This document shows, in pieces, positions 1,663 to 19,876 of a stretch of DNA of 32,000 nucleotides. This DNA is from Cuniculiplasma divulgatum (GTDB lineage Archaea > Thermoplasmatota > Thermoplasmata > Thermoplasmatales > Thermoplasmataceae). The stretch is from contig NZ_LT671858.1 in assembly GCF_900083515.1 (NCBI RefSeq), positions 1,620,001 to 1,652,000 of the forward strand, written 5' to 3'. The notes under the pieces are model-generated. The model was not told the origin of the DNA, searched no databases, and saw only the letters and a list, made by a program, of their open reading frames with translations. How positions within the stretch are numbered: position 1 is the stretch's first letter; the number at the start of each line of letters is the position of its first letter. A program made the translations under genes and the position numbers.

Positions 1663-1711
1663 TGAACCATAATCTTTATTTTACATTCTTACATAGTTTT
1701 TTGTTTTGATC

Positions 1712-2674: not shown

Positions 2675-2913
2675 TTCATTCAGTTTGTAATATGGACTCC
2701 ATATAATAAATTTTTAAGTATCAAATATAAATTTTAGACTAATAGCTTGTGGAAATGGTTGGGATAATTTCAGAAACAGACACAGGTATCCAAGGAATCT
2801 TAACCAATAAAATTAATGTGAAAATTGAAAATAAATATTTGGGTAAATGTTGAAATATAAAAGAAAAGATTTGTGATGCCAGAGATCTTTATCTGACATA
2901 TTCATTTTAAAAA

Positions 2914-5900: not shown

Positions 5901-6195
5901 TTGTTTTGTAAAGACTCCCGTATACCAATTTGGCAATGAATAAATCGCCAAAAGTAATTCCGGTAAATGTATTCAGATCACCTATGGTACAGTCGAGACC
6001 ACAAGTAAATGTTCCATTAGTGTAACCGGGCTCTTCCATTGTAGTTGTTGGCATTTGCCATGCTGTTGATGATGAACCATCAGGCTGTACATTCAAATAA
6101 CTACTCTGACTAATACCAGTATTTGTAGATGATGTATTAATTGGTAAATTAGTTCCAAAGACGAAAAACGCGGAACCTACCATTAATAATACCAT
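2914..6195 (-). CDS. Extracellular solute-binding protein family 5 (Opp/Dpp-type peptide-binding) fused to Ig-like repeat region, C-terminal transmembrane anchor
   Basis: 1093-aa ORF. Short hydrophobic N-terminus (MVLLMVGSAFFVFG). The N-terminal roughly 650 aa have the look of archaeal SBP_bac_5 proteins, which is a weaker, gestalt call. The C-terminal third consists of Thr/Ser/Asn-rich beta-repeat modules, with LTTNSAGQATWKY and LTTNSAGVAVFTF recurring. It ends with a Ser-rich linker, the hydrophobic helix IIAIIAVVIVIVAVAGVYLI and the basic tail RKPKIPKN. I counted about 31 N-x-S/T sequons by hand. Confidence 0.7.
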   Translation of the reverse strand: MVLLMVGSAFFVFGTNLPINTSSTNTGISQSSYLNVQPDGSSSTAWQMPTTTMEEPGYTNGTFTCGLDCTIGDLNTFTGITFGDLFIAKLVYGSLYKTMPDGQIEPWLATNYTLTHVTSNNKTFDIETGKMTNYSYVYTIYLRPYAQWTDWSKANASQTYTFSNKVDYRNSTGVSFTHTYTSYAPTVMKKYYLQSGDVVLSWRLEAALGGWPGVVNVIPNGNLSVKVFVPKPTLLIQSSSLQSYILPYNIWVHHDFTSVKGLFNYTPGMSSGNGYYGWDLGWNTATGSAPGLVGDGPFMVVNGYGMPQGGIVPNQYDKFYVNPHFFAQYANASSGLRQYSPKIYEFYQPYYSSQSSMVAAFTKGQLDLLPVTPSFLSLVKGTPGAYIYIKPSQVFCAVRINENETPLNITTFRQALSYATPYQTIDGTVYDGLLTPSSNTVPPCNVLWYNSSSPQYTYNMQKAKSMISAIPGMANNSGTLTYNGKKVTIQIQIAPGSETPCAAEIANEMSTSFAALGITTVIKEEAYTTMFNNIYETITGKGNFYQMAEYGQGTESGDPADLCALFINDAPAYFSVGCTLGPYTSLNFNGKHLSGQQVTTLLTNLSNELLQSDSYQQAIHISKEIQTLIIEEATLINLGYTTTIDAFQTNQFSNFTTENSNSLFSLYFTLMEVNKAKTTTSVSYKYNMQVQEKLTGALVEKQGDSGSITYTVLNKTTGLPVQGATVGVSVSSIAKGLINTTSNQLTTNSAGQATWKYEVFKNLNLLLQTTSSSGNIINLPDEEVNISATVNPPTKDIHTITTSTYLNIELINTNEKNNLRVTSTYSGKTHLSAGSSGKYMYTVTNSTGTKVKDANITVVMSGIPGSVTSSAFTFNTSTGNSANFTFTIPKTLSNLMTTYGSSGNPMSLYYQEINITAVASVGNQNQTGAGYAYNNVFVINPSLVMSYNLGSTSYTSGQTGKITFTVTENGTAVPGAYVNITSYSLSGVNVGISGYNLTTNSAGVAVFTFTVGDASSGSGSYVTANESIVAKASTSNSSVVPAYSFVNYTVTEKVVKPSSSNYLYEIIAIIAVVIVIVAVAGVYLIRKPKIPKN

Positions 6196-6462
6196 AAATA
6201 CTGATAAAACAATTTTTTATTTATCATTAGTGTCGAATCTGATCTCTTATTAATAAACATTTCTATAATTTTTTTTCCGATATAAAAGTTTTAATAATAA
6301 AAAGTAATCCCCTACCGTGTTTTTGACAATAACACATATTTTCTGATTGTCATTATCAAATTATTTAAATGTTCTTAAACTAAAAATTTAATTGATCTGA
6401 TTTATTTCTTGTATCACTTATTGAGGTTCAAAAATTTAATTATCAGATTCCCATTTCTCACC

Positions 6463-7557
6463 ATGAAAATACATAGAGAAAGTGTGACTTCTTTTTGCTT
6501 TCTGGATTCAGAGGGTAAGATTGTATTATCAAAAAACGAAAATTTACCAGTAATTCCTGCTTCAAATATGAAATTGGTCACCTCCCTTTGTGCACTGGAG
6601 TCCCTAGGAACGGATTATATATTTACCACAAGTTTTTCTTCAGATAAAGATGATTTACACATTGATGGTGACCCATCTTTCTTTTTAAATATAGGTGAAT
6701 GCAGGAGAATCATTAAAGAATTAAAAATTGAAAAGGTAAACAACATTTATCTTGAAAAACCAAGAATCGATAGAGAGTTTTACAATGGTGATTGGGTTTA
6801 TGGTGATTCCAAGTACAGTTATCAGCCAAGAATATCTAATTTTTTTATTGGTGAGAATTGCAAAATTAAAAGTGGTTTCAAATTTGACAATAATGATTTC
6901 AACTATATTCATCAGAACGAGCAATTATTTCAACCAGTTAAAAACCCAGATAAACATTTAGTAGAAGCTTTTTCAGAGGAAAAAAATCTGAGGACAATAA
7001 GGAAAAGTTTGTCTTCTAATAATAATTTTGAAAAAGTTATTTCCCACAGTGCGAATATAAGAGATGTTCTAAGACATATTCTCTTCGAAAGCTGTAATTT
7101 TTATGCTGAAGTTATATTCAAGTATCTTTCAAGTAGCGAAAAATCGCTGGGCACATGGGAAAATTCTTCTAAATTTGTAATGGATTATATTTCCAGGATA
7201 AATGGATCTGAAAATGTAAGGATTAAAGATGGATCTGGACTGAGTAGAGAGAATTTCGTAACCACAGGATTTCTTTCTAACATGCTTTTATATGCTAAGA
7301 AAAATTTTGGAAACACCTTTATAGAACTAATGCCAACAATAGGTCAGGGAACACTGAGGAAACGCCTTATTTCTCTTGAAAAAAATGGAATTTATGCAAA
7401 AACTGGAACACTATCTGGAGTCTCTGCTCTTAGCGGATATATAAGTTCAATGGATACTTTTTTCTCTATAATTATTAATAATAGTCTTGATGAAGGATCA
7501 GTTAGGCAGATGGAAATAGACAGGATTCTATCGGAATTTATTGACAAATATAAATAG
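6463..7557 (+). CDS. D-alanyl-D-alanine carboxypeptidase/endopeptidase homolog (PBP4 type, peptidase S13), short form without signal peptide
   Basis: Active-site boxes PASNMKL (SxxK), DGSGLSRENF and AKTGTLSG (KTG). The ORF track starts at a TTG (6409). The first ATG is at 6463 (MKIHRESV...), which I prefer. Neither start gives a signal peptide. At about 364-382 aa it is shorter than the roughly 480 aa I recall for bacterial DacB. Confidence 0.75.
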   Translation: MKIHRESVTSFCFLDSEGKIVLSKNENLPVIPASNMKLVTSLCALESLGTDYIFTTSFSSDKDDLHIDGDPSFFLNIGECRRIIKELKIEKVNNIYLEKPRIDREFYNGDWVYGDSKYSYQPRISNFFIGENCKIKSGFKFDNNDFNYIHQNEQLFQPVKNPDKHLVEAFSEEKNLRTIRKSLSSNNNFEKVISHSANIRDVLRHILFESCNFYAEVIFKYLSSSEKSLGTWENSSKFVMDYISRINGSENVRIKDGSGLSRENFVTTGFLSNMLLYAKKNFGNTFIELMPTIGQGTLRKRLISLEKNGIYAKTGTLSGVSALSGYISSMDTFFSIIINNSLDEGSVRQMEIDRILSEFIDKYK

Positions 7558-7607
7558 AGAAACTATTTTTCAAATTGTTTGATTTACCACATATAGGCTG
7601 AATGATT

Positions 7608-8486
7608 TTACAGTAATAATGACATTATCTGAAATTTTCTTGTAATTCTGAAACCAAACCTTCCATATAGATGTGAAGCCTTTTCTGTAGTCCATAAAAA
7701 GTATGCATGTCTAATTCCATTTGATTTCATGTTTATTAGTGTAGCCGTCAGAAGCTTGCCTCCTATTCCCATTGAACGGTAATCCTCCAGAACCTCAAAA
7801 CATCCGAACCTCTCGCCTGGAGATGATTCAAATGGCCCTTCTCCACTTGCATACATGGAATAACCAACAATTTTATTATTTACTATAGCAATGGTGATCT
7901 GATCTAAACTTCCGTGCTTTATTACCCCATCGACTCTAAGGTAGCAATCATAGGGAAAGTTACTTCTTACCATTTTTAGGAGTTCTTCTGTTTCTTCAAT
8001 TTTTAGATTTCTGATTTCTGCTTTGCCTCCTTCTTTTTGAATATATTGGTGTTCCCCTATCTCTGCTTCCATTGCTAAAGCCTCTGATTCTGCAGTGAAA
8101 CCTACTTCGACAAGCGAATCGTATAGATCTGAATATTTCTCTCTATCAATGCCAGGAAAGAAATACCCCGGTGAAAAATTGGAATAAAATATACGCTGTA
8201 CTCCAACCTTTTTGGCCTGTTCTATCTGTTTTTTTAGAAGTTTTATAAGATCATCTTTCTTTGTATACCCGGCAGCAAAGATCCATGCTTTCTTTTCTGT
8301 ATCTTCATCTATACCATTTCTTGCACACAAGAGTGAGAATGCCCCCTCGTTTACCTGCTCACCTATTGGAACCACGTACTCATTTCTAAAATATTTCCTT
8401 TCCAGTTGAAATTGAGATGTTGGATCGAATTTATAAAACTCATTCCAGATTTCCAGAATTTTTTCCCTTTCTGTGATCTTGATCAT
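7608..8486 (-). CDS. GNAT family N-acyltransferase (C-terminal GNAT domain, N-terminal uncharacterised half)
   Basis: 292-aa ORF. Acyl-CoA binding motif A, YRSMGIGGKLLTATL, followed by HAYFLWTTEKASHLYGRFGF. Confidence 0.7.
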   Translation of the reverse strand: MIKITEREKILEIWNEFYKFDPTSQFQLERKYFRNEYVVPIGEQVNEGAFSLLCARNGIDEDTEKKAWIFAAGYTKKDDLIKLLKKQIEQAKKVGVQRIFYSNFSPGYFFPGIDREKYSDLYDSLVEVGFTAESEALAMEAEIGEHQYIQKEGGKAEIRNLKIEETEELLKMVRSNFPYDCYLRVDGVIKHGSLDQITIAIVNNKIVGYSMYASGEGPFESSPGERFGCFEVLEDYRSMGIGGKLLTATLINMKSNGIRHAYFLWTTEKASHLYGRFGFRITRKFQIMSLLL

Positions 8487-8686
8487 ATGTTTTGGTATTC
8501 GAAAGTGATTTAACTAGATTTTCCAAGCTTTAAGATCCTTTTTTTATAACTAATATTTTCGGACAGATTGCATTTGGTATATTACCATTCAAAGAAGAGA
8601 ATATTTTTAATTTGACTTATTTTAAAATTAGAGCTTAGACTCTTAACTTATTATGATATAAAAGCATTAAAGATGGGATTTGAATA

Positions 8687-8694
8687 TTTATAAA
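8687..8694 (+). promoter_or_regulatory. Archaeal TATA box (TTTATAAA) for the downstream Ntn amidotransferase gene; implies a leaderless or near-leaderless mRNA
   Basis: TTTATAAA ends 22 nt upstream of the ATG at 8716. That is the distance expected between a TATA box and the transcription start. No Shine-Dalgarno-like purine run lies in between. Confidence 0.5.
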
Positions 8695-8715
8695 GACCAT
8701 CAAGATATAGCTTGA

Positions 8716-9450
8716 ATGTGTCGCATGTTTTGTTTATCTGGAGATTTCTCTAAAGAATATAAAAAAATACTGGACTCCTTTATTGAGGTCACACGAAACG
8801 ATCCTCTCTCCGTAAACAGTGATGGTAGTTTAACATCACATGATCATGGATACGGATATGTAAGATACGATAGTTCTTCACTGGATTTTTTTAGATCACG
8901 AACTCCGGTGTTTGAATCTAATATTCCAGACTTCAGGTCAGGTCAGTTTATTATGCACGCCAGAAAAGCTGCCCCTGATGAACCAATTGGAACTCTAGAG
9001 AGTCATCCCCACTATGAAGTTGATGAAGATTATGAAGTATTTCTAGCGCACAATGGATGGTTTGATAAGAAAAAAATTGCGGTAGAGCTTGGTATTGAAA
9101 ACTTTACGAGATATGTTGATAGTCAATTATTTCTCAAATATATCCTTTCATTCAATGGAGAATTTAGAACTCGTTTGGAGAAAACAATATCCCTTGCAAA
9201 AGAGAAGGATTTGATCAGGGCAACCGCCAATTTGATGATTCTTTCAATAGATCGCAATACGCGAAATTCCAAGTTGTATTACTATACAGATGTAAAAGAA
9301 GGTAGTGAGTATAGTGATTATGTGAAGTTGTATCACGGAAATACAGACCTGTGGAATGGAGTTTTTTCTTCCAGTATTATAAAGTCCATTTCCTTCCCTA
9401 AAAATGTTACTATGAAAGAGGTGAGGAGAGGCGTTTTAAATGAGCTCTAA
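8716..9450 (+). CDS. Class II (Ntn-type) glutamine amidotransferase-like amidohydrolase (YafJ/EgtC-like)
   Basis: 244-aa ORF beginning Met-Cys (MCRMFCLSG), the nucleophile Cys2 arrangement of Ntn amidotransferases. HGYGY and LAHNGWF boxes are present. No synthase domain is attached. Confidence 0.7.
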   Translation: MCRMFCLSGDFSKEYKKILDSFIEVTRNDPLSVNSDGSLTSHDHGYGYVRYDSSSLDFFRSRTPVFESNIPDFRSGQFIMHARKAAPDEPIGTLESHPHYEVDEDYEVFLAHNGWFDKKKIAVELGIENFTRYVDSQLFLKYILSFNGEFRTRLEKTISLAKEKDLIRATANLMILSIDRNTRNSKLYYYTDVKEGSEYSDYVKLYHGNTDLWNGVFSSSIIKSISFPKNVTMKEVRRGVLNEL

Positions 9451-9463
9451 TTTTTCTTTTTTT
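9451..9463 (+). terminator. Oligo-T tract (TTTTTCTTTTTTT) immediately after the stop codon, archaeal intrinsic-terminator-like
   Basis: A T5-C-T7 run starts one nt after the TAA at 9448-9450. It is followed by a 210-nt AT-rich spacer before the next gene. Confidence 0.45.
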
Positions 9464-9673
9464 GTGAACTAATCTAAGAACGATGATAATATTTTAATAT
9501 GTTTTGTTTTTATAATAAATAGGCTAAATATTAACTTTCGAAATTTTACTTTCTCTAAAAATTGGCTAAAAATAATCCATAGACAAGAAATAGTAATTAT
9601 TTTTTAAACCAGTTGACTAAAACTAATACGTAGTTTCAATTACTAGAGAGAATAGTTAGCGTGGTGATAAATT

Positions 9674-10996
9674 TTGGAACTGAGTTTGGAATTTAGATCG
9701 TTGAATGAGATCGAAAGTCTAGTAAAAAGTAATGCAATTTCCCCATGCACGGTTTTAGAAAGACTCATGGAGAGAATTCACAAACTGGACACAAAACTCA
9801 AAAGTTACACAAGATTGAATTTAAATTCCCTTGAAGAATGCGCAAAAAGAGCGAAGTCGTCGGAAAATGTAATACCAGTTTCAGTCAAAGATTTATTTGA
9901 TACAAAAAATATTGAAACAAATTATGGATCAACGATTTATAGAGATCATTTTCCTTCCAAAGATTCCTCGGTTGTAGCAAATATCAAGAAAAGAAATGGT
10001 ATAGTTATAGGTAAAACTGTGACTCACGAGTTTGCCCTTGGAATAATTTCTTCACCAACTAAAAACCCATGGGATTTGAGAAGAATTCCTGGAGGTTCTA
10101 GTGGAGGGTCTGCTGCGGCTGTAGCAGCCGGATTGTCGGTATTTGCTACTGGAACTGATACTGGTGGATCTATTAGAATTCCAGCGGCGATGTGTGGTGT
10201 TACTGGATTTAAACCTACTTACAACCTCATACCCAGAGGTGGAATTTACCCAGAATCCTGGTCTCTGGACCATGCAGGGCCTATAACCAGATATGCCAGT
10301 GATTTGACCCTTGAACTGGAATTAATGACCAGAAAAAACTTTATTATTAAAGGAAGAGAAAGTAAAAAATTTAAAGTGGGTGTTGCCTGGGAAATGTTTG
10401 AATACTGTGAATCCAGTGTGAAAAAAGTCTCATTAGCTGCACTTGAGAAAATTAAAAAAGAGCTGAATATTGAATATATTCATGTTAAAGAAAAATGCCT
10501 GAGATTTAAGGAAATGAAGCACTTTCATGAGATTATTGATACAAGTGAAATTGCCCTAATTCACAGGGAGAACTATGAAAAATATCCAGATAGTTATTTA
10601 GATAGCTCTATTGAGCAGATAGAAGAAGGTATGCGGGTTAAAGCTGTGGATTATGTTAATGCTAAAAGATCCAGAGAGAAATACAGGGAACTATTAGACT
10701 CACAGTTTAAGACTCTCGATATAATTATAATTCCCACATTACAGGACGTGGCCCCTCTTACAGTTCACCAAAAGAAAAGAGAGGAAGTCGATGATATATC
10801 TGAAATTGATTTTCTTTCGCCTTTAAATTATTCAGGAAATCCTGCATTAACTATTCCAGTTGGGTTTTCACATGAACTTCCTGTTGGAATGCAGATAATC
10901 GGAAAGAATAATTCAGATTTAAGATGTATTGAGTTTGCTTCTCTTGTGCAGGATCTCACTGATTGGCATAAAGCAATTCCACAGGGCTTTTCCTGA
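9674..10996 (+). CDS. Amidase-signature family amidase (GatA-like fold, stand-alone)
   Basis: 440-aa ORF. It has the signature GGSSGGSAAAVAAG, GTDTGGSIRIPAAMCG and an upstream catalytic-Lys context, VSVKDLFDT. The ORF track start is a TTG, so the true start is uncertain. No gatB or gatC is adjacent. Confidence 0.85.
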   Translation: MELSLEFRSLNEIESLVKSNAISPCTVLERLMERIHKLDTKLKSYTRLNLNSLEECAKRAKSSENVIPVSVKDLFDTKNIETNYGSTIYRDHFPSKDSSVVANIKKRNGIVIGKTVTHEFALGIISSPTKNPWDLRRIPGGSSGGSAAAVAAGLSVFATGTDTGGSIRIPAAMCGVTGFKPTYNLIPRGGIYPESWSLDHAGPITRYASDLTLELELMTRKNFIIKGRESKKFKVGVAWEMFEYCESSVKKVSLAALEKIKKELNIEYIHVKEKCLRFKEMKHFHEIIDTSEIALIHRENYEKYPDSYLDSSIEQIEEGMRVKAVDYVNAKRSREKYRELLDSQFKTLDIIIIPTLQDVAPLTVHQKKREEVDDISEIDFLSPLNYSGNPALTIPVGFSHELPVGMQIIGKNNSDLRCIEFASLVQDLTDWHKAIPQGFS

Positions 10997-11229
10997 ACTA
11001 TCTTTGTCTGGCACGGTAATCTTAGAAACCACAAATGGCAATTGCATTGTAGGATTGGCTGTTACATAATATCTGTGGTATTGTATTTCTATGACCTTAT
11101 GAGTGATGCAATTAACTACTTCCTATATATTTCTATTTAAAATTAGTATAAAATTGAGCTTTTACTGATTTATAGCTATATCCTACTTATAAGAATATAT
11201 TTATCATCTCAAGTACATTACAGTACTTT

Positions 11230-12015
11230 GTGGAAATTGAAACCGTAATGGATCCTGATAAATTAAGAGGCATGATTCCGATAATTAAATCAGCATGGGG
11301 AATGAGCACCATGGATCAACTTGTGAAAGATATGATTGCTGCAATGAGGTTTCATGGTGGTTTGGCCCTAATTGCCATGGAAGATGAAAAAGCGGTAGGA
11401 ATGCATTTTAGTTTTACTGGAAGAAGAAACGGTAAGATATACCTTTACTCACATATGACTGGAGTTCTAAGTGATAAAAAGTATTCAGGTATTGGATTCC
11501 AGTTGAAAATGAGACAAAAAGAGTGGGCTATTGAGAATGGTTTTGATCTTATAGCATGGACATATGATCCACTCATGGATTTAAATGCCAATTTTAATAT
11601 TCACAAAATTGGAGCCATTTCAAGGACATATCTAAGAAATTTTTATGGAGATATGGAAGATTCGATCAATTACGGGATTCCAAGTGATAGGTTCGTGGCT
11701 GAATGGTGGATACTTGACGACAAAATAGAGCAAAAAAAACCATTGATTAGCGTCAATACAGTTGATGAAAATCAGGAACTGAATGCTAAAGAATTGCCAG
11801 ATGTGATTTCATTTAAAATCCCCGTGGATTTCTTATCTATAAAAAGAAATGATAAAGATACATCACTTAATATTAGATTATCAACCAGGGCTATGATAGA
11901 AGATTTGTTTTCTGACGGATTTATAGTGACTGATTTTAAAAGAGATTCCTCATCGTATATCATGGTTAGGCGTAATAAGGAAGATTTAGAATACCATAAA
12001 AATTTTTTTACCTGA
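11230..12015 (+). CDS. GNAT-fold acyltransferase; candidate D-amino acid N-succinyl(acyl)transferase by context
   Basis: 261-aa ORF. GNAT motif-A-like YSGIGFQLKMRQKEWAIENGF. GTG start at 11230, alternative ATG at 11248. A TATA-like ATATTTAT at 11197-11204 lies about 26 nt upstream of the GTG. Convergent with the M20/racemase operon. Confidence 0.55.
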   Translation: MEIETVMDPDKLRGMIPIIKSAWGMSTMDQLVKDMIAAMRFHGGLALIAMEDEKAVGMHFSFTGRRNGKIYLYSHMTGVLSDKKYSGIGFQLKMRQKEWAIENGFDLIAWTYDPLMDLNANFNIHKIGAISRTYLRNFYGDMEDSINYGIPSDRFVAEWWILDDKIEQKKPLISVNTVDENQELNAKELPDVISFKIPVDFLSIKRNDKDTSLNIRLSTRAMIEDLFSDGFIVTDFKRDSSSYIMVRRNKEDLEYHKNFFT

Positions 12016-12061
12016 CTTCGCTACACCAACTATTAATTGGTTTTGAGATTAAATTTTGTTA

Positions 12062-13171
12062 TCACATGGTCATTATCAGGCCTAAAAGGGCTGAACGTTC
12101 TGGAAGAGTATCAAGGAGCAGATATTCATTTTCTGAATGTGCACCATCACCGACAGCTCCAAGACCATCGATTACTGGACAGTATTTAGAGCAGATATTT
12201 CCATCGCTTGCTCCAGAAACTGAAACTTCATCAATATTTAATCCAATATTGCTGGCAAGTAGCTTTACTTTTTGAAAAAGATCTTTTGTTAAATCTGTTC
12301 TGGTCATGGGTTCTCTCATTCTGTAGGTAACTGATGTTGTAGAACCTGCCAGCCCTGTTTTTAATGATTTTAGAAATAATAACACATTTTCTGCAGATTC
12401 TTCAGAGCTGTATCTAACATCTATTCCAATCTCACAGAAATCAGGTATCACATTGGTTCTTGTGCCACCATGGATCGTACCTATGTTAATTAACGTACCA
12501 TCATTAATACCCGCGGAAAAGTTTTTAATTTGCTCAATTATGGAACTCATTGCATTTATTGCATTAATACCTTTCTTTGGGTCCAGTCCTGCATGCGCCG
12601 CCTTTCCAGTTATTTTCAGCATTATTGTTCCAACACCTTTTCTTTCGGTTTTGAGATTTCCATTAAGAGATGCTTCCATGACCAGAGCAAATTTAGATCT
12701 CTTTGCCTCTTCCTCGATTATTGATCTGGAGAAGGCTGAGCCTATTTCCTCATCTGACGTAATTAGTAAAACAACTTTGTTTTTTATTGTTTTATTTCTA
12801 ACAAGATATTCCATGGCAAAGATAGTCTGCACCAGGCCTCCTTTCATATCAAAGACACCGGGTCCATATGCTTTTCCACTTTCAATCCTGAATGGATTTT
12901 TCTTTGTGGTTCCCTCATCAAATACGGTGTCATAATGAGTTAACAACAAAATCTGTTCCTGTGCGTCAGGGTTGAATATACATCTTATAATGTTTCCAGC
13001 AGATTCTGACCTAATTAATTCACACTTTAACCCCGTTATATGTTCTATTATATCCAGAAGGTGATTTGCAAATTTATCCAGAAGTGGTTTATTTACTGAA
13101 GGAGTTTCCATATTGACAAAATCCTCCAGCATTTGTATCATATCCATCTTTCTGCTTTTCATATAATCCAT
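12062..13171 (-). CDS. M20 family metallopeptidase (carboxypeptidase G2 / N-acyl-L-amino acid amidohydrolase type); candidate N-succinyl-L-amino acid desuccinylase
   Basis: 369-aa ORF. THYDTV (His/Asp metal ligands), GPGVFDMKGG, ITSDEEIGS and a C-terminal GDGAHSENEY. Its start lies 5 nt downstream of the stop of the enolase-superfamily gene, on the same strand. Confidence 0.8.
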   Translation of the reverse strand: MDYMKSRKMDMIQMLEDFVNMETPSVNKPLLDKFANHLLDIIEHITGLKCELIRSESAGNIIRCIFNPDAQEQILLLTHYDTVFDEGTTKKNPFRIESGKAYGPGVFDMKGGLVQTIFAMEYLVRNKTIKNKVVLLITSDEEIGSAFSRSIIEEEAKRSKFALVMEASLNGNLKTERKGVGTIMLKITGKAAHAGLDPKKGINAINAMSSIIEQIKNFSAGINDGTLINIGTIHGGTRTNVIPDFCEIGIDVRYSSEESAENVLLFLKSLKTGLAGSTTSVTYRMREPMTRTDLTKDLFQKVKLLASNIGLNIDEVSVSGASDGNICSKYCPVIDGLGAVGDGAHSENEYLLLDTLPERSALLGLIMTM

Positions 13172-13176
13172 TATGT

Positions 13177-14265
13177 CTATGATAACACCCCTTCTTCAAC
13201 TTTAAATTGTGTTAGGACTGATTCATTGATTTTGACACCTATTCCGGGAGAATTGAATGGTTTTATAATTCCATCATTCATTTCAAACAGCCTATCCACT
13301 ATATCCTGACTAAAATATCTTTCGTTTGGAGATGTGTCCCCTGGGTAGTCTATGAGTTCGCTGGAAGCCATTGCTATGTTGAATGATCTTCCTATGCCAG
13401 TTTCAAGCATACCACCAATCCATGCATGTCCCTTATTATTACTGGCTATTTTTGCTATAAGATTTGAATTATAGAGTCCCCCTACCCTTCCTGGCTTAAT
13501 GTTCACAACTCTACATGCACCTATTTCAAAAGCATTTTCAGCAATTTCAGGGGATGTAATAGATTCATCCAGACATATGGGTGTTGAAAGTATTTTAGCC
13601 AATTTCGAATGGTATATTATATCATCATGGTAAAGAGGTTGCTCAAGGTATATCAAATCAAATTTGTCAATTTTTTCAAGCGTCTTAAAATCCTTTACTG
13701 TATAATCACTGTTCGCGTCCGCACTGAGAGGTATATCAGGAAAGTGGTCCCTTATTGGGGCCAATATTGAAACTTCTCCTCCTTTCCTGATTTTTACCTT
13801 GATCCTTTTGTAACCCTTATCCAGCGATTGCTGAATTTTCTCAAGTGTTACATTTATTTTATCAATACCAAGTGATATTCCAGCGTTTGCATAACCTCTT
13901 GGTTTTTCATTTATAAATTCAAAAAGGGGTTTTTCTGCCACTTTAGAATGATAGTCATACAGCAACATCTCCATGGCTGCTTTTGCCATATTGTTCCCCC
14001 TGATAAAATTTGAAATCTCATTAAACTTCTCCGGAGATGGCAAATTTTGAATCAATTTCACAAGATAATTCTTAATTATATGAAATGCTGTTGTATTATC
14101 CTCTGGTCCATAGAAAGGATCTTCACTTGTGATTAGTTCTGAGAATGCTTTAATACCATCATGATTAAGTTCAAAAATGATCACATCCTTATCCAGAGTA
14201 GTTCCAAAACTTGTGGTAAATGGAGACTTCATTGGAATCTTCAACCTGTAATATTTAAGGTTCAT
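13177..14265 (-). CDS. Enolase-superfamily enzyme of the N-succinylamino acid racemase / o-succinylbenzoate synthase (NSAR/OSBS) subfamily
   Basis: KRIKVKI (KxK acid/base box), SADANSDY, YLEQPL and CLDES (three metal ligands), VNIKPGRVGG (second catalytic Lys) and GGMLETGIGRS. The last two boxes match my memory of NSAR/OSBS rather than dipeptide epimerases. The ORF track start is a TTG at 14304. I prefer the ATG at 14265 (MNLKYYRLKIPMKSPF). Confidence 0.75.
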   Translation of the reverse strand: MNLKYYRLKIPMKSPFTTSFGTTLDKDVIIFELNHDGIKAFSELITSEDPFYGPEDNTTAFHIIKNYLVKLIQNLPSPEKFNEISNFIRGNNMAKAAMEMLLYDYHSKVAEKPLFEFINEKPRGYANAGISLGIDKINVTLEKIQQSLDKGYKRIKVKIRKGGEVSILAPIRDHFPDIPLSADANSDYTVKDFKTLEKIDKFDLIYLEQPLYHDDIIYHSKLAKILSTPICLDESITSPEIAENAFEIGACRVVNIKPGRVGGLYNSNLIAKIASNNKGHAWIGGMLETGIGRSFNIAMASSELIDYPGDTSPNERYFSQDIVDRLFEMNDGIIKPFNSPGIGVKINESVLTQFKVEEGVLS

Positions 14266-14449
14266 ACAAATTCGATTGATGTGATATAGATAAATATTTT
14301 GCAATGTTCTCTAGGAAATTGTAAGATTTCAACAATGTCGATTATATATTTATATTAATTTATTAACATTAACTTAAGAAATACTAGCCTTCGGGCCTAA
14401 TTTTAAATTTGTAGCAAACTTAATTTAATCAGGAATAATGTGAAGAATC

Positions 14450-15559
14450 ATGTATAGTGAGGTTAAAAGAGGTTCAGTAGAAAATAGACAATTGCTTATA
14501 GATTCTCTTGATTCAGTTTTTCGACCAGGAAATGTTCAGGGCTCATCAATGGCACTTGAATTCCCCCATCTTTTTTCTGATGATAATATAGAAAACACCT
14601 TCTATATCGATGATGGCAAAATTCCTGTTAGCCAGGCAAGTGTACTTTTATCAAAAACATGCATAAACGGAGCCATACTTGACGTTGCTTCACTTGGTTC
14701 AGTATCCACAATGAAGGATCATAGACACAAGGGTTTATCCACAAAAATCATAAACAGAATGATTGAAGTTTACAGGAATTCTGAAATAGACCTTCTCCTG
14801 GTTTCAGGGGAGATTGAACTGTATACTAAGCTCGGTTGTGTGAAAACAGGATCGGATTATTCAGCAGTAATAGAAAAAATTGGAAAAAATGAAGATATAG
14901 AACAAAATGGAAAATATTTTGTCAAACTGTCCTCACCGGAGGAAAGAATTGCTAATGCAGTAGAATACCACAGGATTCATATTAAAGAAAAGTTCAGGTA
15001 CATGAGAACTTCTAAAGAATTCAGTATCTTGTTAAACGCTCTATGGTTTAAGAGAAATGGATTTCGGATGGACCTGTTTGAAATCAGAAATGAGAATGAA
15101 ACTATATTAGCTTACGTTGTAGCATTCAAGAAAATAGGAGATTCAAAGTTAAAGATAATGGAATATGCAGGTTCTCGAAAGGCCATAGCCAGTTGTCTTC
15201 TCGATATAATGGCTAAAATGGAATGTAGTGAAATTAGATTCAGAGTAAACGAGGAGGATTTTAATTTTATTGAGGAGCTCTCCAGATTAAATGTTAAGCT
15301 TGTTCAGGAAAACTCACAGGGAACTTTAAAGATTCTGAATTCCCAGTCCATCTTCAGAAAATTAAGACCGCTTATAATAGAAAGAATAGGAGAATATTTT
15401 GAATTTAGGGAAATAGGCAATGAAAAGTGGTTATTTATATCTGGTTCATTAAAGAAGGAGATTAATGGATATGATGATTTAACTCACTTCATATTTGATA
15501 AGAAGGAGGGTTCTCTGGGTATTCCCCTGATGTTTACCGATGATTTGAATTATATATGA
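14450..15559 (+). CDS. GNAT family N-acetyltransferase, Eis/COG4552-like architecture (GNAT plus C-terminal extension)
   Basis: 369-aa ORF. Motif A, HRHKGLSTKIINRMIEVY, sits in the N-terminal third. The long C-terminal region is of the size seen in Eis-like enzymes. Divergent from the racemase gene across a 145-185-nt spacer. Confidence 0.55.
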   Translation: MYSEVKRGSVENRQLLIDSLDSVFRPGNVQGSSMALEFPHLFSDDNIENTFYIDDGKIPVSQASVLLSKTCINGAILDVASLGSVSTMKDHRHKGLSTKIINRMIEVYRNSEIDLLLVSGEIELYTKLGCVKTGSDYSAVIEKIGKNEDIEQNGKYFVKLSSPEERIANAVEYHRIHIKEKFRYMRTSKEFSILLNALWFKRNGFRMDLFEIRNENETILAYVVAFKKIGDSKLKIMEYAGSRKAIASCLLDIMAKMECSEIRFRVNEEDFNFIEELSRLNVKLVQENSQGTLKILNSQSIFRKLRPLIIERIGEYFEFREIGNEKWLFISGSLKKEINGYDDLTHFIFDKKEGSLGIPLMFTDDLNYI

Positions 15560-15638: not shown

Positions 15639-16652
15639 TCAATCAGAAATTCTCCCTGCTTTCTGCTGATCTTCTGCACGCTGATCATAGGGGTAGGTTA
15701 CCTCCAATTCACTTGCATTGTTTATCCTTGCTATATCAGCTTTTGACAGTTCCCATCCGGTTCCACCAAGATTATCCTTCAGCTGTTCAAGGTTTCTCGC
15801 CCCTATTATGGGTGAAGTAACAGCTGGATTTCTCAGAAGCCAGTTAATAGATACCTGTGCCATGCTTTTATGATTCTTCTCGGCTACTTTTTCAAGTGTG
15901 CTGATTATGTTCTTTGCCCTTCTTGTTTCGAACTGTTTGTAAAATTCGGCATTGTTTGAGTCTCCTATTCTGGTTCCTTTAGATGCACCTTCTATTCCAC
16001 CTTTGTATTTTCCAGTCAGGAACCCTCCTGCAAGTGGACTCCATGGCATAACGGCAATATTTTCTTCTCTGGCCATGGGTAACAACTCAAATTCAGTGGC
16101 TCTTACGAAAATATTGTAATGGGGCTGAAGACTTACCGGTTCATTCCATCCCTTTGATCTGCATAACTGGAGTGCTTTTTCAAACTGCCATGCCCTGAAG
16201 TTACTTATTCCAATATATCTTACATAGCCATCTTCAACCATTCCATTGAGTGTTCGAAACGTTTCTTCCAGTGGAGTCAGAGCATCCCATGTGTGCAACT
16301 GTAAAAGATCTATATAATCAGTATTCAATCTCTCCAAACTTTCCTTTACTGAATGGATCAGATGTTTTCTCGATAATCCGACACCGTTTGCATGATCACT
16401 CATCCTGAATCTAGCTTTCGTTGCGATGACCAGGGATTCCCTATCCTGTCTTTTTAGCCATTCACCTATAATTGTTTCAGATTTACCGTGTGAATATACA
16501 TTTGCAGTATCAATAAAGTTGCCTCCATTTTCCGTGAAATGGTCTAATATCTCATGGCTTTGAACCTCATTTGCCTGCCATCCAAAGGTCATAGTTCCAA
16601 GGCAGAGATCACTAACGAGCATACCTGTATTTCCAAATTTCTTCATTTCCAT
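15639..16652 (-). CDS. Aldo/keto reductase family oxidoreductase
   Basis: 337-aa ORF. LGTMTFG, GGNFIDTANVYSHGKSE (Asp/Tyr of the catalytic tetrad), IATKA (Lys) and LQLHTWD (His). Confidence 0.9.
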   Translation of the reverse strand: MEMKKFGNTGMLVSDLCLGTMTFGWQANEVQSHEILDHFTENGGNFIDTANVYSHGKSETIIGEWLKRQDRESLVIATKARFRMSDHANGVGLSRKHLIHSVKESLERLNTDYIDLLQLHTWDALTPLEETFRTLNGMVEDGYVRYIGISNFRAWQFEKALQLCRSKGWNEPVSLQPHYNIFVRATEFELLPMAREENIAVMPWSPLAGGFLTGKYKGGIEGASKGTRIGDSNNAEFYKQFETRRAKNIISTLEKVAEKNHKSMAQVSINWLLRNPAVTSPIIGARNLEQLKDNLGGTGWELSKADIARINNASELEVTYPYDQRAEDQQKAGRISD

Positions 16653-16828
16653 AATGGAACATATAAGCCCTTAAACTTAAAAATGTTTACCCGCGTTTTA
16701 AAATCCTTTATTAAGGCTATTCGGGACTCCAACCATTGGTCAAACAACAAGAACCAATAATACGCCCTATGATCTTTACCTGACCTGATTTATCAACACT
16801 GCGCAATTGCATACCAATATCCTCTCAA

Positions 16829-16854
16829 CAACAGAAACATCATAATTTCTGTTG
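16829..16854. other. Perfect 9-bp stem / 8-nt loop hairpin (CAACAGAAA-catcataa-TTTCTGTTG) inside the long non-coding region
   Basis: Read directly: 16829-16837 is the exact reverse complement of 16846-16854. Function unknown. Confidence 0.4.
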
Positions 16855-17417
16855 CAGACATAAGATATATTAGAAATGATGTATCTTCCAAAGAATGAAA
16901 AATGTCCAATCTATCTCTTATCATAACATGTTTCTTCCGATTTCTCTTTTTCATTGATATTATCCCCTTGTTTCCCGTTGAATATTAGATCGCCAGCAAA
17001 ATTCACCTACCACTATTTATATCATTAAGTGGAATTGCATATCTATTGCCCATGAAGTTTGTCCGCGAAGTAATAATATATATTTAATAAATCATAAGCA
17101 GTATGCATGAGAATGTATTCATGACCTAGAATAGAATCTATACTTCAGGTTTTTCTGAGAGAATTTTATGGCAGAAAATTTTAATCAGTTTAAGGGTGTT
17201 CTTTCCTTCAAATTAAATCAATACATATTAGGCAAGCGCATCACCTGATTTGATAGGGTAATTTCATGTTTAATCTCAGTCTATTGGTGGATATAACAGT
17301 AAATTGAGGTAAATAGAAAATATTTGTTAGCCTTCATCCTGCCATACGAAGCGGGAAATTGAGATGCCAACTGCCTGAGTTAGTCTAATTTTATGTTAAA
17401 AAATGATGATTTAAAGA

Positions 17418-18158
17418 ATGAAAAGTGTTTATAACCCTTTTACATTTATAATACAGATGCTAGGAAATGAAGGTAACTTGAAAACACTGAGTTGCGAAAA
17501 TATTCTTGGAAGGGAATTAAATGATGTGGAAAAAAAGTATGCACCTCAGAAGCTCTTTGTAAAGGGATCAATTCCTTTACCCATATATAAACCTAGGATA
17601 TCAGTTGTTGGAACCAGGAAGCCCTCTGAAGTTGGAATAAATATTACCAAGAACTTGGTCAGATTGTTAGTTAAAAATGGTATTGCTATATTTAGTGGGT
17701 TGGCACGAGGAATAGATACTGTTGCGCACAAAACAGCAATAGAAGAAAATGGTGATACCATTGCGGTGCTGGGTACTCCAATTAATCGTTATTACCCACC
17801 TGAAAATAAAGAATTACAAGAACTCATGGAAAGAAGACAGCTGGTTATAAGCCAATTTGACATGGGTCACTATACTAACAAAAGGGACTTTTTAACGAGA
17901 AACAGACTAATGGCACTTCTCTCTGATATTACTATAATAATGGAGGCAGGTGAAGTAAGTGGCTCAATTTCTCAGGGATGGGAGACACTAAGATTGGGTA
18001 GAAAGCTTTACATATGTTCTCCTACTTTTGAGAATGAAAGCCTTGAATGGCCAAGGGAAATGCAAAAATATGGTGCAAACGAACTTGATATAGGTAATGT
18101 TGAACTGATATTAGAAGAAACATCAAATTATGTTAAGGCAAGTATGGATGATCAGTAA
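17418..18158 (+). CDS. DprA/Smf-like Rossmann (SLOG superfamily) protein, minimal single-domain form; ShosA-like
   Basis: 246-aa ORF. ISVVGTRKPS, SGLARGIDTVAHKTAIEENGDTIAVLGTPINRYYPPENKEL, LVISQF and FLTRNRLMALLSD match the DprA core. It lacks the N-terminal SAM and C-terminal winged-helix extensions of long DprAs. Confidence 0.8.
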   Translation: MKSVYNPFTFIIQMLGNEGNLKTLSCENILGRELNDVEKKYAPQKLFVKGSIPLPIYKPRISVVGTRKPSEVGINITKNLVRLLVKNGIAIFSGLARGIDTVAHKTAIEENGDTIAVLGTPINRYYPPENKELQELMERRQLVISQFDMGHYTNKRDFLTRNRLMALLSDITIIMEAGEVSGSISQGWETLRLGRKLYICSPTFENESLEWPREMQKYGANELDIGNVELILEETSNYVKASMDDQ

Positions 18159-18879
18159 CAAAAATGAACTTCATTATATTTCCATACTCTCATATCTGCC
18201 AAAAAAATACCTTCAAAGTATAACAGATAAAGACACTCTTAAGGATGCAATAAAATCAATTGATATAATGAGAACCTTGAAACAAAACCTTCATGTGATA
18301 TCTCAAGGAAAGAGCATTCCCATCACAGAATGGTTGACTCATTATATCACACATGCAAATCAAGATAATTTAGGTTTAGACTTTGATAATTTTTTTAGGT
18401 CAGACACTGTATTAATCCCTGTCCCCAGAAGCATTATTATTAAAAAGGATACTCTTTGGGTTCCTAAAGACATCGCTACTACTTTCAGCAAAAAGATGAA
18501 CTTAAAAATGATCCCTCTTCTAACGAGATTAACTCCAGTTAATGTTTCTTCTAAAAGTTTACCTAATAATAGACCTAAACCACTCGATCACTTTAATTCC
18601 TTATCATTATCAAAAGGCATGGATAGTCAAATTAGAAACATAGTAACAAATAAATTGGGAATTATTCTTGTGGATGACGTGATAACGAGAGGTTCCACTT
18701 TAATGGGATGTTACTGGAAAATTTTGGAAATTTTTAAATCGTATCAGTATTACCCACAAATATCGGGCTTTTGTGCAATGAGAACTATTAGTAATAGTCT
18801 TGAGTTTAGGAAACCAATTGACCCCCACGAAGGAGATATTACATATAGAGATTCAAATGGTGATACCTTGAGAACGTGA
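18130..18879 (+). CDS. ComF-like phosphoribosyltransferase-domain protein; ShosT-like
   Basis: 249-aa ORF. Canonical PRPP-binding loop LGIILVDDVITRGSTLMG, preceded by a ComF-like LIPVPRS box. There is no N-terminal Cys4 zinc finger. It overlaps the DprA-like gene by 29 nt, or by 11 nt if the ATG at 18148 is used. Confidence 0.75.
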   Translation: MLRQVWMISNKNELHYISILSYLPKKYLQSITDKDTLKDAIKSIDIMRTLKQNLHVISQGKSIPITEWLTHYITHANQDNLGLDFDNFFRSDTVLIPVPRSIIIKKDTLWVPKDIATTFSKKMNLKMIPLLTRLTPVNVSSKSLPNNRPKPLDHFNSLSLSKGMDSQIRNIVTNKLGIILVDDVITRGSTLMGCYWKILEIFKSYQYYPQISGFCAMRTISNSLEFRKPIDPHEGDITYRDSNGDTLRT

Positions 18880-19051
18880 TTGACACACAGAGAAACCATC
18901 GTGGAAATGGTATCATGATTTTGCCTTAAATTTCAAGAAAGTGTAAGAAGTCTAGATGAAAGATGAGTTTGGTCTATTCAGTTTCGATTAAATGGACATA
19001 TAGAACTCATTCATGAAAAATAATTAAATCACAATCAGCATATACCCCATA

Positions 19052-19876
19052 ATGAAATTAATCGAGAATTGGTTTTCGGAAAGGTATTCAGATAACCTTC
19101 AGCTGTCTTTTAGAGTTAGTGATCAGTTGTTATCAGTAAAAACTGATTTCCAGAGAATTGACGTTTTTGAAACCTACGATTTTGGAAAACTACTTTCCAT
19201 AGACGGAACTGTTCAGCTAACAGAAAAAGATGAATTCGTTTATCATGACATGATAACAAGGATGCCCTTTTACTATGCAGATAAGATACCTGAAAAAGCA
19301 CTGATAATTGGGGGTGGAGATGGAGGAGCTGCTGGGGAATTATTGAAGCTTGGACTTAAATCCATAATTAATGTTGAGATCGATGGCCAGGTTGTAGAAG
19401 TCTGCAGGAAGCATTTTCCAAAATTAACTGCTTCATTCAATGATCCTAAGGTGAAACTTATTGTGGATGATGGAATAAAGTATGCAAGGAACACAAAGGA
19501 AAAATTTGATATTATAATTGTAGATTCCACTGATCCTGTAGGTCCAGCAGAAGATCTATTTAATGAAGAGTTTTACTCCAATGTATCCAGAATTCTGAAT
19601 GATGGTGGAGTGGTAGTTACCCAGTCTGGATCACCATTCTACCAGCCCAGGGGAATTGAACTGGCCAATAAAGGAATGAGAAAATCCTTCCCTCATGTGG
19701 CAAGTTATGTGGCATTCATTCCAACCTATCCAAGTGGCTTCTGGAGTTTTACCATGGCAAAGAAAAGCCAGATTAAACTTAGAACAGAAAATGTGGAGAA
19801 GGGTGAATATTTCAATCTTGAAATAGCAAAATCAAGTTTTGCACTTCCAGAGTTTGCAAAAAAACTCACGCTTTGA
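19052..19876 (+). CDS. speE: Spermidine synthase / polyamine aminopropyltransferase
   Basis: 274-aa [34 protein letters not shown] and [16 protein letters not shown]. Confidence 0.92.

Follow-up and report, generated by a model that had tools for sequence, protein, structure and literature searches.

The gene pair and the island that carries it

The window analysed here is a stretch of 32,000 nucleotides from an acidophilic archaeon of the Thermoplasmatales. It contains two overlapping genes on the + strand, hereafter called A and T, flanked by an aldo-keto reductase gene and a spermidine synthase gene (Table 1). The open reading frame of A spans positions 17418 to 18158 (246 aa) and that of T positions 18130 to 18879 (249 aa), with an overlap of 29 nt. 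These reading frames, as well as the overlap of 11 to 29 nt described in the initial annotation, were confirmed. Both proteins are likely shorter than their frames. Because the reading frame of the A orthologue in a close relative (locus L012, 88% identical) is interrupted by a stop at A codon 13, A likely starts at M14, giving 233 aa. Likewise, T likely starts at its second ATG (M7, 243 aa), since the T gene of L012 is called from the equivalent of M7 and since N-termini across the T family agree. With this start, the overlap is reduced to 11 nt. In related loci, the two genes overlap by 4 or 20 nt or are separated by 3 to 20 nt; in 63 out of 64 loci, the end of the A domain precedes the start of the T domain by 17 to 59 nt. 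The A/T junction is that of a tight operon, in which translation of the two genes would be coupled. As compared to L012, dN/dS values of 0.08 for A and 0.27 for T were obtained, the flanking enzymes having a value of 0.02. A and T are real, intact genes under purifying selection.

Table 1. Coordinates of the features of the locus, given as positions in the window
Feature	Position	Strand	Evidence or remark
Accessory island of variable presence (2,290 bp) with A and T	16716..19005		Window compared with L013
Lineage-specific non-coding block, 411 bp	16716..17126		77 bp at this place in L012
Non-coding region ahead of A, conserved along with the module	17127..17456	+	About 70% identity to L012, patchy
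Gene A, DprA-like protein of compact ShosA type (putative antitoxin, predicted to bind ssDNA)	17457..18158	+	Pfam, PADLOC, PDB, model
Gene T, compact ShosT-type PRTase-like protein, predicted toxin/effector	18148..18879	+	PADLOC, Foldseek, model
11-nt overlap, T start codon with A end (ATGATCAGTAA)	18148..18158	+	Direct reading of the sequence
PRPP-binding loop ILVDDVITRGST of T	18664..18699	+	Sequence
Downstream non-coding tail of the island	18880..19005		L013 homology restarts at 19006

The pair is bordered by long non-coding flanks, as previously described: 765 bp precede A, or 804 bp when its start is placed at 17457, and 172 bp follow T. All open reading frames in these flanks are of 68 aa or less, and no conserved small ORF was found in the 765-bp upstream region, which has no other match in the window or in the Thermoplasmata loci. 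Rfam scans gave nothing above threshold, either in the whole window at the gathering score or in the 16600-19100 region at E <= 1. No tRNA gene that could mark an integration site was found.

Comparison with close relatives delimited a variable island. Homology between the window and the closest pair-less genome (L013) ends at position 16715 and restarts 46 bp ahead of the spermidine synthase start. In place of the island, this genome has 242-268 bp of unrelated intergenic DNA, and its 268-bp 'empty site' has no match elsewhere in the window or in the Thermoplasmata loci. The presence/absence polymorphism that the initial annotation proposed to look for was observed: L012 carries the pair and L013 does not, their flanks are 99.0-99.7% identical, and 1,934 and 268 bp, respectively, stand between these flanks. 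At L014, the corresponding gap holds another cargo ORF. In 22 Thermoplasmata genomes (23 genome loci, L013-L035), the pair was not found in the speE flanks that were fetched, although it may lie elsewhere in those genomes; this distribution differs from that of a core gene kept in syntenic position across the lineage. Overall, the gene pair is accessory, being present or absent between near-identical genomes.

The left part of the island varies further. A strain-level rearrangement breakpoint was located at about position 16876, inside the lineage-specific block, of which no other copy was found in the window or in related loci. To the right of this position, three loci (L006-L008) match the window at 99.8-100% identity; to the left, they carry FixC/ETF genes and not AKR/GNAT genes. 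Two alternative left flanks of the gene pair thus exist within one species. Between the block and gene A, conservation with L012 is patchy and strongest right before A. Neither a conserved ORF nor an Rfam family was found in this region, which probably corresponds to the promoter and 5′ regulatory sequence of the module.

At the ends of the island, the repeat search gave only short matches expected by chance; terminal repeats, whether inverted or direct, were not found, nor was a target-site duplication. As terminal repeats are lacking, a transposon or integrase mechanism cannot be proposed. The neighbours of the pair in the window are housekeeping or metabolic genes, with no defence island around it. 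The locus is an example of an archaeal defence-type cassette that behaves as a small island, varies between strains and has no recognisable mobility genes.

Sequence and predicted structure of A and T

A matches the Pfam family DNA_processg_A with an E-value of 3.3e-49 and the PADLOC ShosA model PDLC03961 with an E-value of 7.9e-69 (230 bits). Residues 38-223 of A align to positions 95-282 of the 303 positions of PDLC03961, positions 1-94 being unmatched. The PsyrA model is matched as well (5.8e-24), with ShosA scoring far higher, and Pfam SLOG matches are weak. With the NCBIfam dprA equivalogs, A remains below both cutoffs (TIGR00732, 149.5 bits for a cutoff of 191.15; PRK10736, 108.1 bits for a cutoff of 495). 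Among PDB sequences, DprA (9e-25) and ShosA (1e-19) were retrieved, S. pneumoniae DprA being the most similar.

The model of A (pLDDT 91.9) shows a stand-alone DprA Rossmann domain, in agreement with the single-domain DprA assignment made previously. Its TM-scores to DprA and ShosA are in the 0.74-0.78 range (0.77 for DprA; 0.74 for ShosA 8zva); for ShosA, the value is 0.74 when normalised to A and 0.57 when normalised to ShosA. LOG-type phosphoribohydrolases and Moco-carrier proteins come after them (E-values of 1e-5 to 1e-7, TM about 0.5). Only about 25-40 residues precede the Rossmann/SLOG domain, which is followed by a C-terminal helix and a disordered tail; there is no SAM domain. R54 (17616-17618) and R148 (233-aa numbering) are the equivalents of the ssDNA-binding residues R139 and R234 of ShosA, and both are invariant among 28 archaeal-type A homologues. 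In contrast, the RecA-contact residues K200 and R206 of ShosA are replaced in A by P115 and Q121, and the dimer-interface residues L181 and F182 by two glutamates.

T matches the PADLOC ShosT model PDLC03962 with an E-value of 1.1e-15 (56 bits), residues 10-204 aligning to positions 56-200 of 237. Of the two Pfam families that the initial annotation proposed to look for, DNA_processg_A was found in A, whereas Pribosyltran remained below significance for T itself, which has no Pfam match above cutoff. Across the family, 21-25 of the 40 members sampled for residue and model checks match Pribosyltran or PRTase_2 at 1e-5 to 1e-6. No match to the PsyrT models was obtained at E <= 1, and the NCBIfam comF model TIGR00201 gave 14.9 bits for a cutoff of 233.55.

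The model of T (pLDDT 91.3) is a single domain with a type-I PRTase-like fold. Nearly all the top Foldseek matches are PRTases, with probabilities up to 1.00 and low TM-scores, the TM of T to all solved PRTases being at most 0.38. The best PDB match is H. pylori ComF (E = 1.8e-5), with PurF at 7.6e-4 and ShosT 8zvd at a probability of 0.98 and a TM of 0.38. A fold search in BFVD returned generic PRTases and nothing more. The predicted PRPP loop of T aligns with those of APRT and OPRT structures. According to the model, T thus is a type-I phosphoribosyltransferase fold equipped with a PRPP loop. This loop had been noted before, together with the absence of a Cys4 zinc finger, which follows from the presence of only two cysteines in T.

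Residues K51, P97, R133, H154, D182, D183 and G188 are invariant in the T family, and the DD and G residues of the PRPP loop do not vary across the 40 sampled members. Using hhalign, the segment IvLVDDVVTRG of T was placed on ILVIDDFCTEG of E. coli ShosT, D182 and D183 corresponding to D331 and D332. The probability of this alignment between the T family and E. coli ShosT was 5.5% over 70 columns around the PRPP region. When two T-family profiles were compared to PDB sequences, neither ShosT (E <= 10) nor ComF was found; T is so highly diverged that the profile of its family misses E. coli ShosT in the PDB. The N-terminal region of about 100 aa, regarded earlier as unassigned, turned out to be part of the core conserved throughout the T family; the alignment to the ShosT model begins at residue 10.

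Relationship to ShosTA and to other systems

T homologues form 2,105 clusters. A compact DprA gene was found directly upstream of T in 63 of the 64 loci sampled for linkage, and all 40 sampled T-family members matched the ShosT model, three of them also weakly matching retron PRTase_III-A models. Practically all sampled relatives retain the pairing and its A-then-T order, in archaea as well as in bacteria, on a plasmid and on viral contigs. The pair occurs in Archaeoglobus, in Nitrosotalea, on an Allochromatium plasmid, where it lies beside repB, and on three viral contigs. Among named database matches, the compact A-then-T modules are predominantly archaeal. T is always the more diverged partner, with 30-41% identity as compared to 44-50% for A. 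Some relatives adjoin Hachiman, PDC-S68, mad, AriA or Cas genes, in a census made without background control. In one clade of soil contigs, the pair has a fixed position by an M20 peptidase gene. M20 peptidase, SBP_bac_5 and amidase genes recur beside the modules of relatives. A synteny shared with the window was considered and rejected, the proteins being only about 25% identical and all coming from a single clade of soil contigs.

The original description of ShosTA was that of a toxin-antitoxin pair. Bacterial ShosTA has been validated experimentally as an anti-phage system that protects against T7, lambda and other phages; its antitoxin works by a mechanism linked to RecA. The E. coli system (APEC O1 / KTE181 / P2-like prophage hotspot; structures 8ZVA, 8ZVD and 9VZO) was studied by Pu et al. 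2025 (PMC11961720) and by Yang et al. 2026 (PMC12961424). The D331A/D332A mutation abolishes the toxicity of ShosT, and the antitoxin function of ShosA requires both ssDNA binding and RecA binding (PMC11961720, PMC12961424). The pyrophosphatase domain of ShosT raises toxicity, the SAM domain is required for ShosA stability, and the two E. coli proteins do not bind each other. Computational surveys place ShosTA among the most frequent defence systems in archaea, and a haloarchaeal preprint correlates ShosTA with virus resistance. The view that archaeal ShosTA is unstudied therefore holds for experiments, of which none was found in the literature, but not for computational surveys.

The archaeal pair and E. 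coli ShosTA have several traits in common. PDLC03961 and PDLC03962 recognise both, the E. coli proteins (ShosA and ShosT from a P2-like phage) giving 2.4e-85 and 1.8e-53, respectively. T and ShosT share the DD-containing PRPP loop and a basic flexible-loop motif; A and ShosA share the ssDNA-binding arginines and a disordered C-terminal tail, and mobile or variable DNA carries both systems. The order with the DprA-like gene first had been read as a departure from ShosTA, but in E. coli ShosTA (phage 10W) the A gene also comes first, with the PRTase gene immediately after. T (243 aa, against 424 aa for ShosT) lacks the N-terminal pyrophosphatase domain; A (233 aa, against about 328 aa for ShosA) is devoid of the N-terminal SAM domain (ShosA residues 1-94), of the dimer-interface residues and of the RecA-contact residues. 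Beyond the PRPP region, similarity of T to E. coli ShosT is undetectable, and the E. coli-specific model PDLC03012 does not match T.

Judged by E-values with the broad PADLOC-DB v2 models, and not by PADLOC's own cutoffs, the adjacent genes match ShosA and ShosT and the pair is assigned to ShosTA. As regards the E. coli type, motif comparison indicates that the DD motif and the ssDNA-binding arginines are present, whereas the pyrophosphatase domain, the SAM domain and the RecA-contact residues are missing. At the sequence level, the pair thus is a stripped-down ShosTA, of a family already recognised by standard defence-gene models. The ShosTA-like reading of the initial annotation was therefore sustained by the PADLOC matches, by DNA_processg_A and by the accessory status of the pair; the gene-order contrast and the Pribosyltran match that went with it were not.

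Other known systems resemble the pair less closely. With DprA (Smf; S. pneumoniae 3UQZ, H. pylori 4LJK/5MLL), A shares the extended Rossmann fold (26-30% identity), and the Rossmann domain of H. pylori DprA alone equals A in size (TM normalised to the target, 0.82). Canonical DprA is a solitary core gene, whereas A is always paired with a PRTase-like gene and has neither a SAM domain nor a C-terminal winged-helix domain. ComFC/ComF (H. pylori 7P0H) has, like T, a PRPP-binding type-I PRTase fold tied to ssDNA handling, but T is 14% identical to 7P0H with a TM of 0.35 and lacks its N-terminal zinc finger. PsyrTA / RqlHI and the type III-A retron PRTase effectors share the theme of a PRTase toxin with a nucleic-acid-linked partner. 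In contrast to them, T is a single PRTase-like domain of about 243 aa, with neither a reverse transcriptase nor an ncRNA nearby.

Proposed function and alternative explanations

Our preferred explanation, to which we give a probability of about 0.7, is that the pair is a compact two-gene ShosTA-type toxin-antitoxin or abortive-infection module carried by a strain-variable island of about 2.3 kb in a Thermoplasmatales archaeon. By analogy with the bacterial system, T would be toxic, A would act as its antitoxin and the module would protect against viruses. T may be a single-domain non-canonical phosphoribosyltransferase binding PRPP via its DD(V/I)ITRG loop and the invariant Lys, Arg and His residues. 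When unrestrained, it would consume PRPP or transfer phosphoribose to an acceptor, thereby disturbing nucleotide pools and DNA replication, so that the infected cell would stop growing. A, a bare DprA Rossmann domain in which both key arginines are kept, would bind ssDNA and counteract T indirectly, rather than by binding to it. Co-expression from overlapping genes would keep the supply of A matched to that of T. If a virus shut off host expression, or if viral ssDNA built up, the protection by A might be abolished and T set free. Archaea use RadA and not RecA, and the host is without RecA. Since the RecA-contact residues are also lost in A, A would act via RadA or another route; this is the least certain step of the scheme.

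The same module could alternatively be a selfish addiction element, persisting through post-segregational killing and bringing no benefit against viruses to its host. Its place on the Allochromatium plasmid, where the adjacent gene is the replication initiator repB, its behaviour as a small mobile island among housekeeping neighbours and the original description of ShosTA as a toxin-antitoxin pair would all fit. However, the protection afforded by bacterial ShosTA, the correlation with virus resistance in haloarchaea and the location of some compact relatives beside other defence genes point to a defensive role. Addiction and defence are not mutually exclusive. We consider a purely selfish module rather unlikely. 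Still less probable is an enzymatic neutralisation, in which A, as a SLOG/LOG protein, would bind or hydrolyse the phosphoribosylated product of T or a DNA adduct, with no recombinase involved. Members of the SLOG/LOG superfamily bind nucleotides and cleave N-glycosidic bonds. The LOG-type and Moco-carrier matches of the A model, the weak Pfam SLOG matches, and the absence of RecA from the host and of RecA-contact residues from A agree with such a role. Against it stand the dependence of the E. coli antitoxin on ssDNA and RecA, the invariance of the ssDNA-binding arginines in the archaeal A family and a TM to LOG enzymes far below that to DprA.

During competence, the bacterial proteins ComFC and DprA both handle ssDNA entering the cell. 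The initial annotation therefore considered that the pair might be a remnant of DNA uptake or processing. It could also be a working part of such a pathway, as in natural transformation, and H. pylori ComF and S. pneumoniae DprA are indeed the closest structure to T and the closest sequence to A. This explanation appears highly improbable in view of the comF and dprA scores below cutoff, of the missing Cys4 zinc finger and low TM to ComF, and of the absence of competence genes from the window; moreover, the pair is self-contained, polymorphic in its presence, and also found on a plasmid and on viral contigs. PRTases are central metabolic enzymes, and a housekeeping pair for nucleotide salvage or DNA repair, without any role in conflict, would agree with the metabolic neighbours in the window and with the fixed position by the M20 peptidase gene in the soil-contig clade. 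We regard it as the least probable of these explanations, because of the patchy distribution, with loss or gain between 99%-identical genomes, of the fast evolution of T as compared to the flanking enzymes, and of the fact that T is above cutoff for no metabolic PRTase family.

Within the ShosTA-type toxin-antitoxin explanation, we tentatively propose, as a possible but doubtful extension, that compact A-then-T modules are a mechanistically distinct ShosTA branch. A bare DprA/SLOG protein would restrain a bare PRTase without RecA, SAM or pyrophosphatase, either via RadA or by binding or reversing the phosphoribosylated product or DNA adduct of T. If T is toxic, A neutralising and the pair protective, the pyrophosphatase domain, the SAM domains and RecA would be dispensable for the core mechanism, and a minimal system would be at hand in which to search for the acceptor substrate. 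Because both proteins are minimal, the subfamily could be the simplest one for identifying the acceptor of ShosT-type toxins. This compact subfamily is very large, with about 2,100 T clusters and thousands of compact DprA-like partners, the named ones being archaeal. As regards annotation, archaeal 'DprA' genes are mostly halves of such an A/T module and should not be taken as a sign of natural competence.

Two overlapping genes related to ShosTA

As described in the initial annotation, the DprA-like gene (A) and the PRTase-like gene (T) were found as overlapping ORFs on the + strand (see the table of features). Their starts were refined by comparison with the orthologous pair of a related locus, L012. 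In L012, codon 13 of A is an in-frame TAA, and the gene starts again at the codon matching M14. Therefore, the start of A is most likely at position 17457 (233 aa). For T of L012, the called start is the counterpart of M7, in agreement with the N-termini of the homologues of T (T-family), so that T most likely starts at 18148 (243 aa). With these starts, A and T overlap by 11 nt, ATGATCAGTAA. With respect to L012, A has a dN/dS of 0.08 and T one of 0.27. Both are under purifying selection in this comparison and are real genes, chance ORFs being ruled out. No ORF longer than 68 aa was found in the 765 bp upstream of A or in the 172 bp downstream of T, and these non-coding flanks contained neither tRNA genes nor Rfam matches.

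A matched the Pfam family DNA_processg_A (3.3e-49) and, in the PDB, S. pneumoniae DprA (9e-25) and E. coli ShosA (1e-19). Its model (pLDDT 91.9) shows a stand-alone DprA Rossmann domain followed at the C-terminus by a helix and then a disordered tail, with TM-scores of 0.77 to DprA and 0.74 to ShosA (8ZVA). The latter is only 0.57 when normalised to ShosA, because the SAM domain is missing from A. All named sequences most closely related to A (50-62% identity) are archaeal (Conexivisphaerales, Caldarchaeum, Bathyarchaeota, Archaeoglobus, Nitrososphaerota, Nitrosotalea). T had no match above cutoff in Pfam or NCBIfam. The structural neighbours of its model (pLDDT 91.3) are nearly all type-I PRTases, including H. 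pylori ComF (1.8e-5), PurF (7.6e-4) and ShosT (8ZVD, probability 0.98). TM-scores to these neighbours were all at most 0.38, showing that T is a strongly diverged PRTase. It has two cysteines and thus no Cys4 zinc finger, as first noticed.

With the PADLOC models, A was assigned to ShosA (PDLC03961, 7.9e-69) and T to ShosT (PDLC03962, 1.1e-15), which bears out the ShosTA resemblance initially proposed. As a reference, the characterised E. coli ShosTA was recovered from a P2-like phage locus (L181) and scanned with the same models. E. coli ShosT matched the specific model PDLC03012 (3e-294) and also PDLC03962 (1.8e-53); ShosA matched PDLC02997 (2e-231) and also PDLC03961 (2.4e-85). PDLC03961 and PDLC03962 are therefore broad models that cover the experimentally studied proteins too. 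Only the broad models were matched by the window pair, by a pair from a bacterial plasmid and by one from Nitrosotalea. Positions 1-94 of the ShosA model, corresponding to the SAM domain, are absent from their A proteins, and the first ~36-55 positions of the ShosT model from their T proteins. ShosT was not found at E ≤ 10 when T-family profiles were searched against the PDB. Using hhalign, the T-family aligned with E. coli ShosT over 70 columns only, corresponding to the flexible loop (R...K-S) and the PRPP loop, with 5.5% probability. The gene order had been thought to differ from that of ShosTA; it is in fact identical to that of the E. coli system.

Overall, the window pair belongs to an uncharacterised compact ShosTA subfamily. 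The alternative initially considered, a remnant of a DNA-uptake system, was rejected, as family scores, architecture and distribution all speak against it. Occurrence of ShosTA in archaea is not new, since published reports include its enrichment in Asgard archaea and its correlation with virus resistance in haloarchaea. The literature search yielded no experimental work on ShosTA of archaea or of the compact type, and single-domain variants are not discussed in PMC11961720 or PMC12961424.

Size of the family and linkage of A and T

An exhaustive profile search retrieved 2,105 T-family clusters (50% identity) at E ≤ 1e-3 and 783 at E ≤ 1e-30, with members nearly all 205-235 aa long. In a 40-member sample, K51, P97, R133, H154, D182, D183 and G188 were invariant. 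Linkage was examined in 83 T-family loci from metagenomes and viral contigs, the metagenome loci being the 80 top-scoring hits of a motif-seeded scan, near-duplicates included. In 64 loci, the sequence preceding T was 750 bp or longer, and 63 of these showed a compact DprA-like ORF on the same strand ending 17-59 nt before the T domain (231-326 aa, measured stop-to-stop). The 64th also has a DprA-like ORF, with a truncated T match. The A-then-T arrangement was also observed in Archaeoglobus, Nitrosotalea and two other contigs, and on the Allochromatium plasmid pALVIN01, where the pair adjoins repB. Between relatives, A (44-50% identity) is always better conserved than T (30-41%).

Three IMG/VR viral contigs (L174:5797-6441, L175 and L176) carry the compact DprA-then-T pair. 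Viruses or proviruses therefore carry the module in some cases.

In one clade of related soil contigs (L116, L125, L128, L129, L132, L134, L144, L165), an M20 peptidase gene occupies a fixed position ~115 bp downstream of T. Shared synteny with the M20 gene of the window was rejected, the proteins being ~25% identical; this context is lineage-specific.

Possible mode of action

In E. coli, ShosT toxicity is due to the PRTase domain, which binds PRPP, and is abolished by D331A/D332A. ShosA does not bind ShosT but requires ssDNA binding (R139, R234), dimerisation and RecA binding (K200, R206). Because ShosA is intrinsically unstable, the system fires upon phage shut-off of host expression or ssDNA accumulation (PMC11961720, PMC12961424 for all these points).

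Window T shares with ShosT the DD loop and the basic flexible-loop residues, and A has both ssDNA arginines (R54, R148). In contrast, the pair lacks the pyrophosphatase and SAM domains, and in A the RecA-contact residues are replaced by P115/Q121 and the dimer residues by E/E. From the features that are kept, we infer by homology the same overall logic: T would be a PRPP-dependent toxin, A would be an antitoxin binding ssDNA and acting indirectly, and infection would lead to toxin release. Archaea use RadA, and A may act through this recombinase or by another route.

A variable island and its surroundings

Coordinates of the pair and of neighbouring features in the window
Feature	Position	Strand	Remarks
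A, ORF	17418-18158	+	246 aa
T, ORF	18130-18879	+	249 aa
Aldo-keto reductase (AKR)	15639-16652	-	immediate neighbour of pair
Spermidine synthase (speE)	19052-19876	+	immediate neighbour of pair
NamZ exo-N-acetylmuramidase	562-1662
LD-carboxypeptidase S66	1712-2674
SBP_bac_5 solute-binding protein	2914-6195		1,093 aa; GC about 0.40, higher than surroundings
S13 D-Ala-D-Ala carboxypeptidase	6409-7557
Amidase	9674-10996
M20 peptidase	12062-13171
MR_MLE-type epimerase	13177-14304

L012, which has the pair, and L013, a related locus devoid of it, have flanks 99.0-99.7% identical in DNA, enclosing 1,934 bp in L012 as compared to 268 unrelated bp in L013. Relative to L013, the variable segment (island) of the window is 16716-19005. 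Beside speE, the pair was found in none of 23 Thermoplasmata genome loci (L013-L035; 0/23, fetched flanks). In a related species (L014:1720-2526), the AKR|speE gap holds a different ORF of 268 aa, which has a hydrophobic segment near its N-terminus and did not match Pfam. With this different cargo, the gap resembles a small hotspot of variable gene content. Terminal repeats, integrase and transposase were not found at the island.

Three contigs of the window's own species (L006-L008) are 99.8-100% identical to the window from 16876 rightwards, over the island and right flank. Left of this point (~16876 in the window; L006:8581-8747), they carry FixC/ETF genes instead. FixC|speE adjacency was seen in at least ten more distant Thermoplasmata species, and AKR|speE adjacency in the window, L009 and the nearest species. 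Thus, two genome arrangements coexist within the species; they may stem from a reversible inversion, from recombination or from an older polymorphism.

Between the window and L012, dS is 0.58-0.65 for A/T (17457-18879 vs L012:4328-5750), about half that of flanking core genes (1.06-1.35), though estimates exceeding 1 approach saturation and codon usage is uncontrolled. This hints that the two lineages exchanged the island after their split. A 411-bp non-coding block (16716-17126) is specific to the window lineage, L012 having 77 bp there. No second copy of it was found in the window or at the related loci, and it contains neither a convincing ORF nor a match to an RNA family.

The surroundings include archaeal genes (Kae1-Bud32 fusion, DUF3198, HTH_10 regulator and others), and host GC is low (about 36%). 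Spermidine synthase is 96% identical to a Thermoplasmatales MAG copy and 80% to a Cuniculiplasma sp. copy. These features identify the host as a member of the Thermoplasmatales. A GNAT-like gene adjoining AKR (14450-15559) is 72% identical to its L012/L013 orthologue (dN/dS 0.12), whereas genes around it are 94-96% identical (dN/dS 0.02); it evolves unusually fast as compared to its neighbours.

The window's lineage is generally regarded as wall-less. The gene run at 562-14304, which also includes GNAT acetyltransferases, is typical of bacterial peptidoglycan/muropeptide recycling and may serve for scavenging bacterial cell-wall fragments. Within it, ORFs 8716-9450 (244 aa) and 11230-12015 (261 aa) had no significant Pfam match, the former giving a weak GATase_4 hint (E = 0.004).
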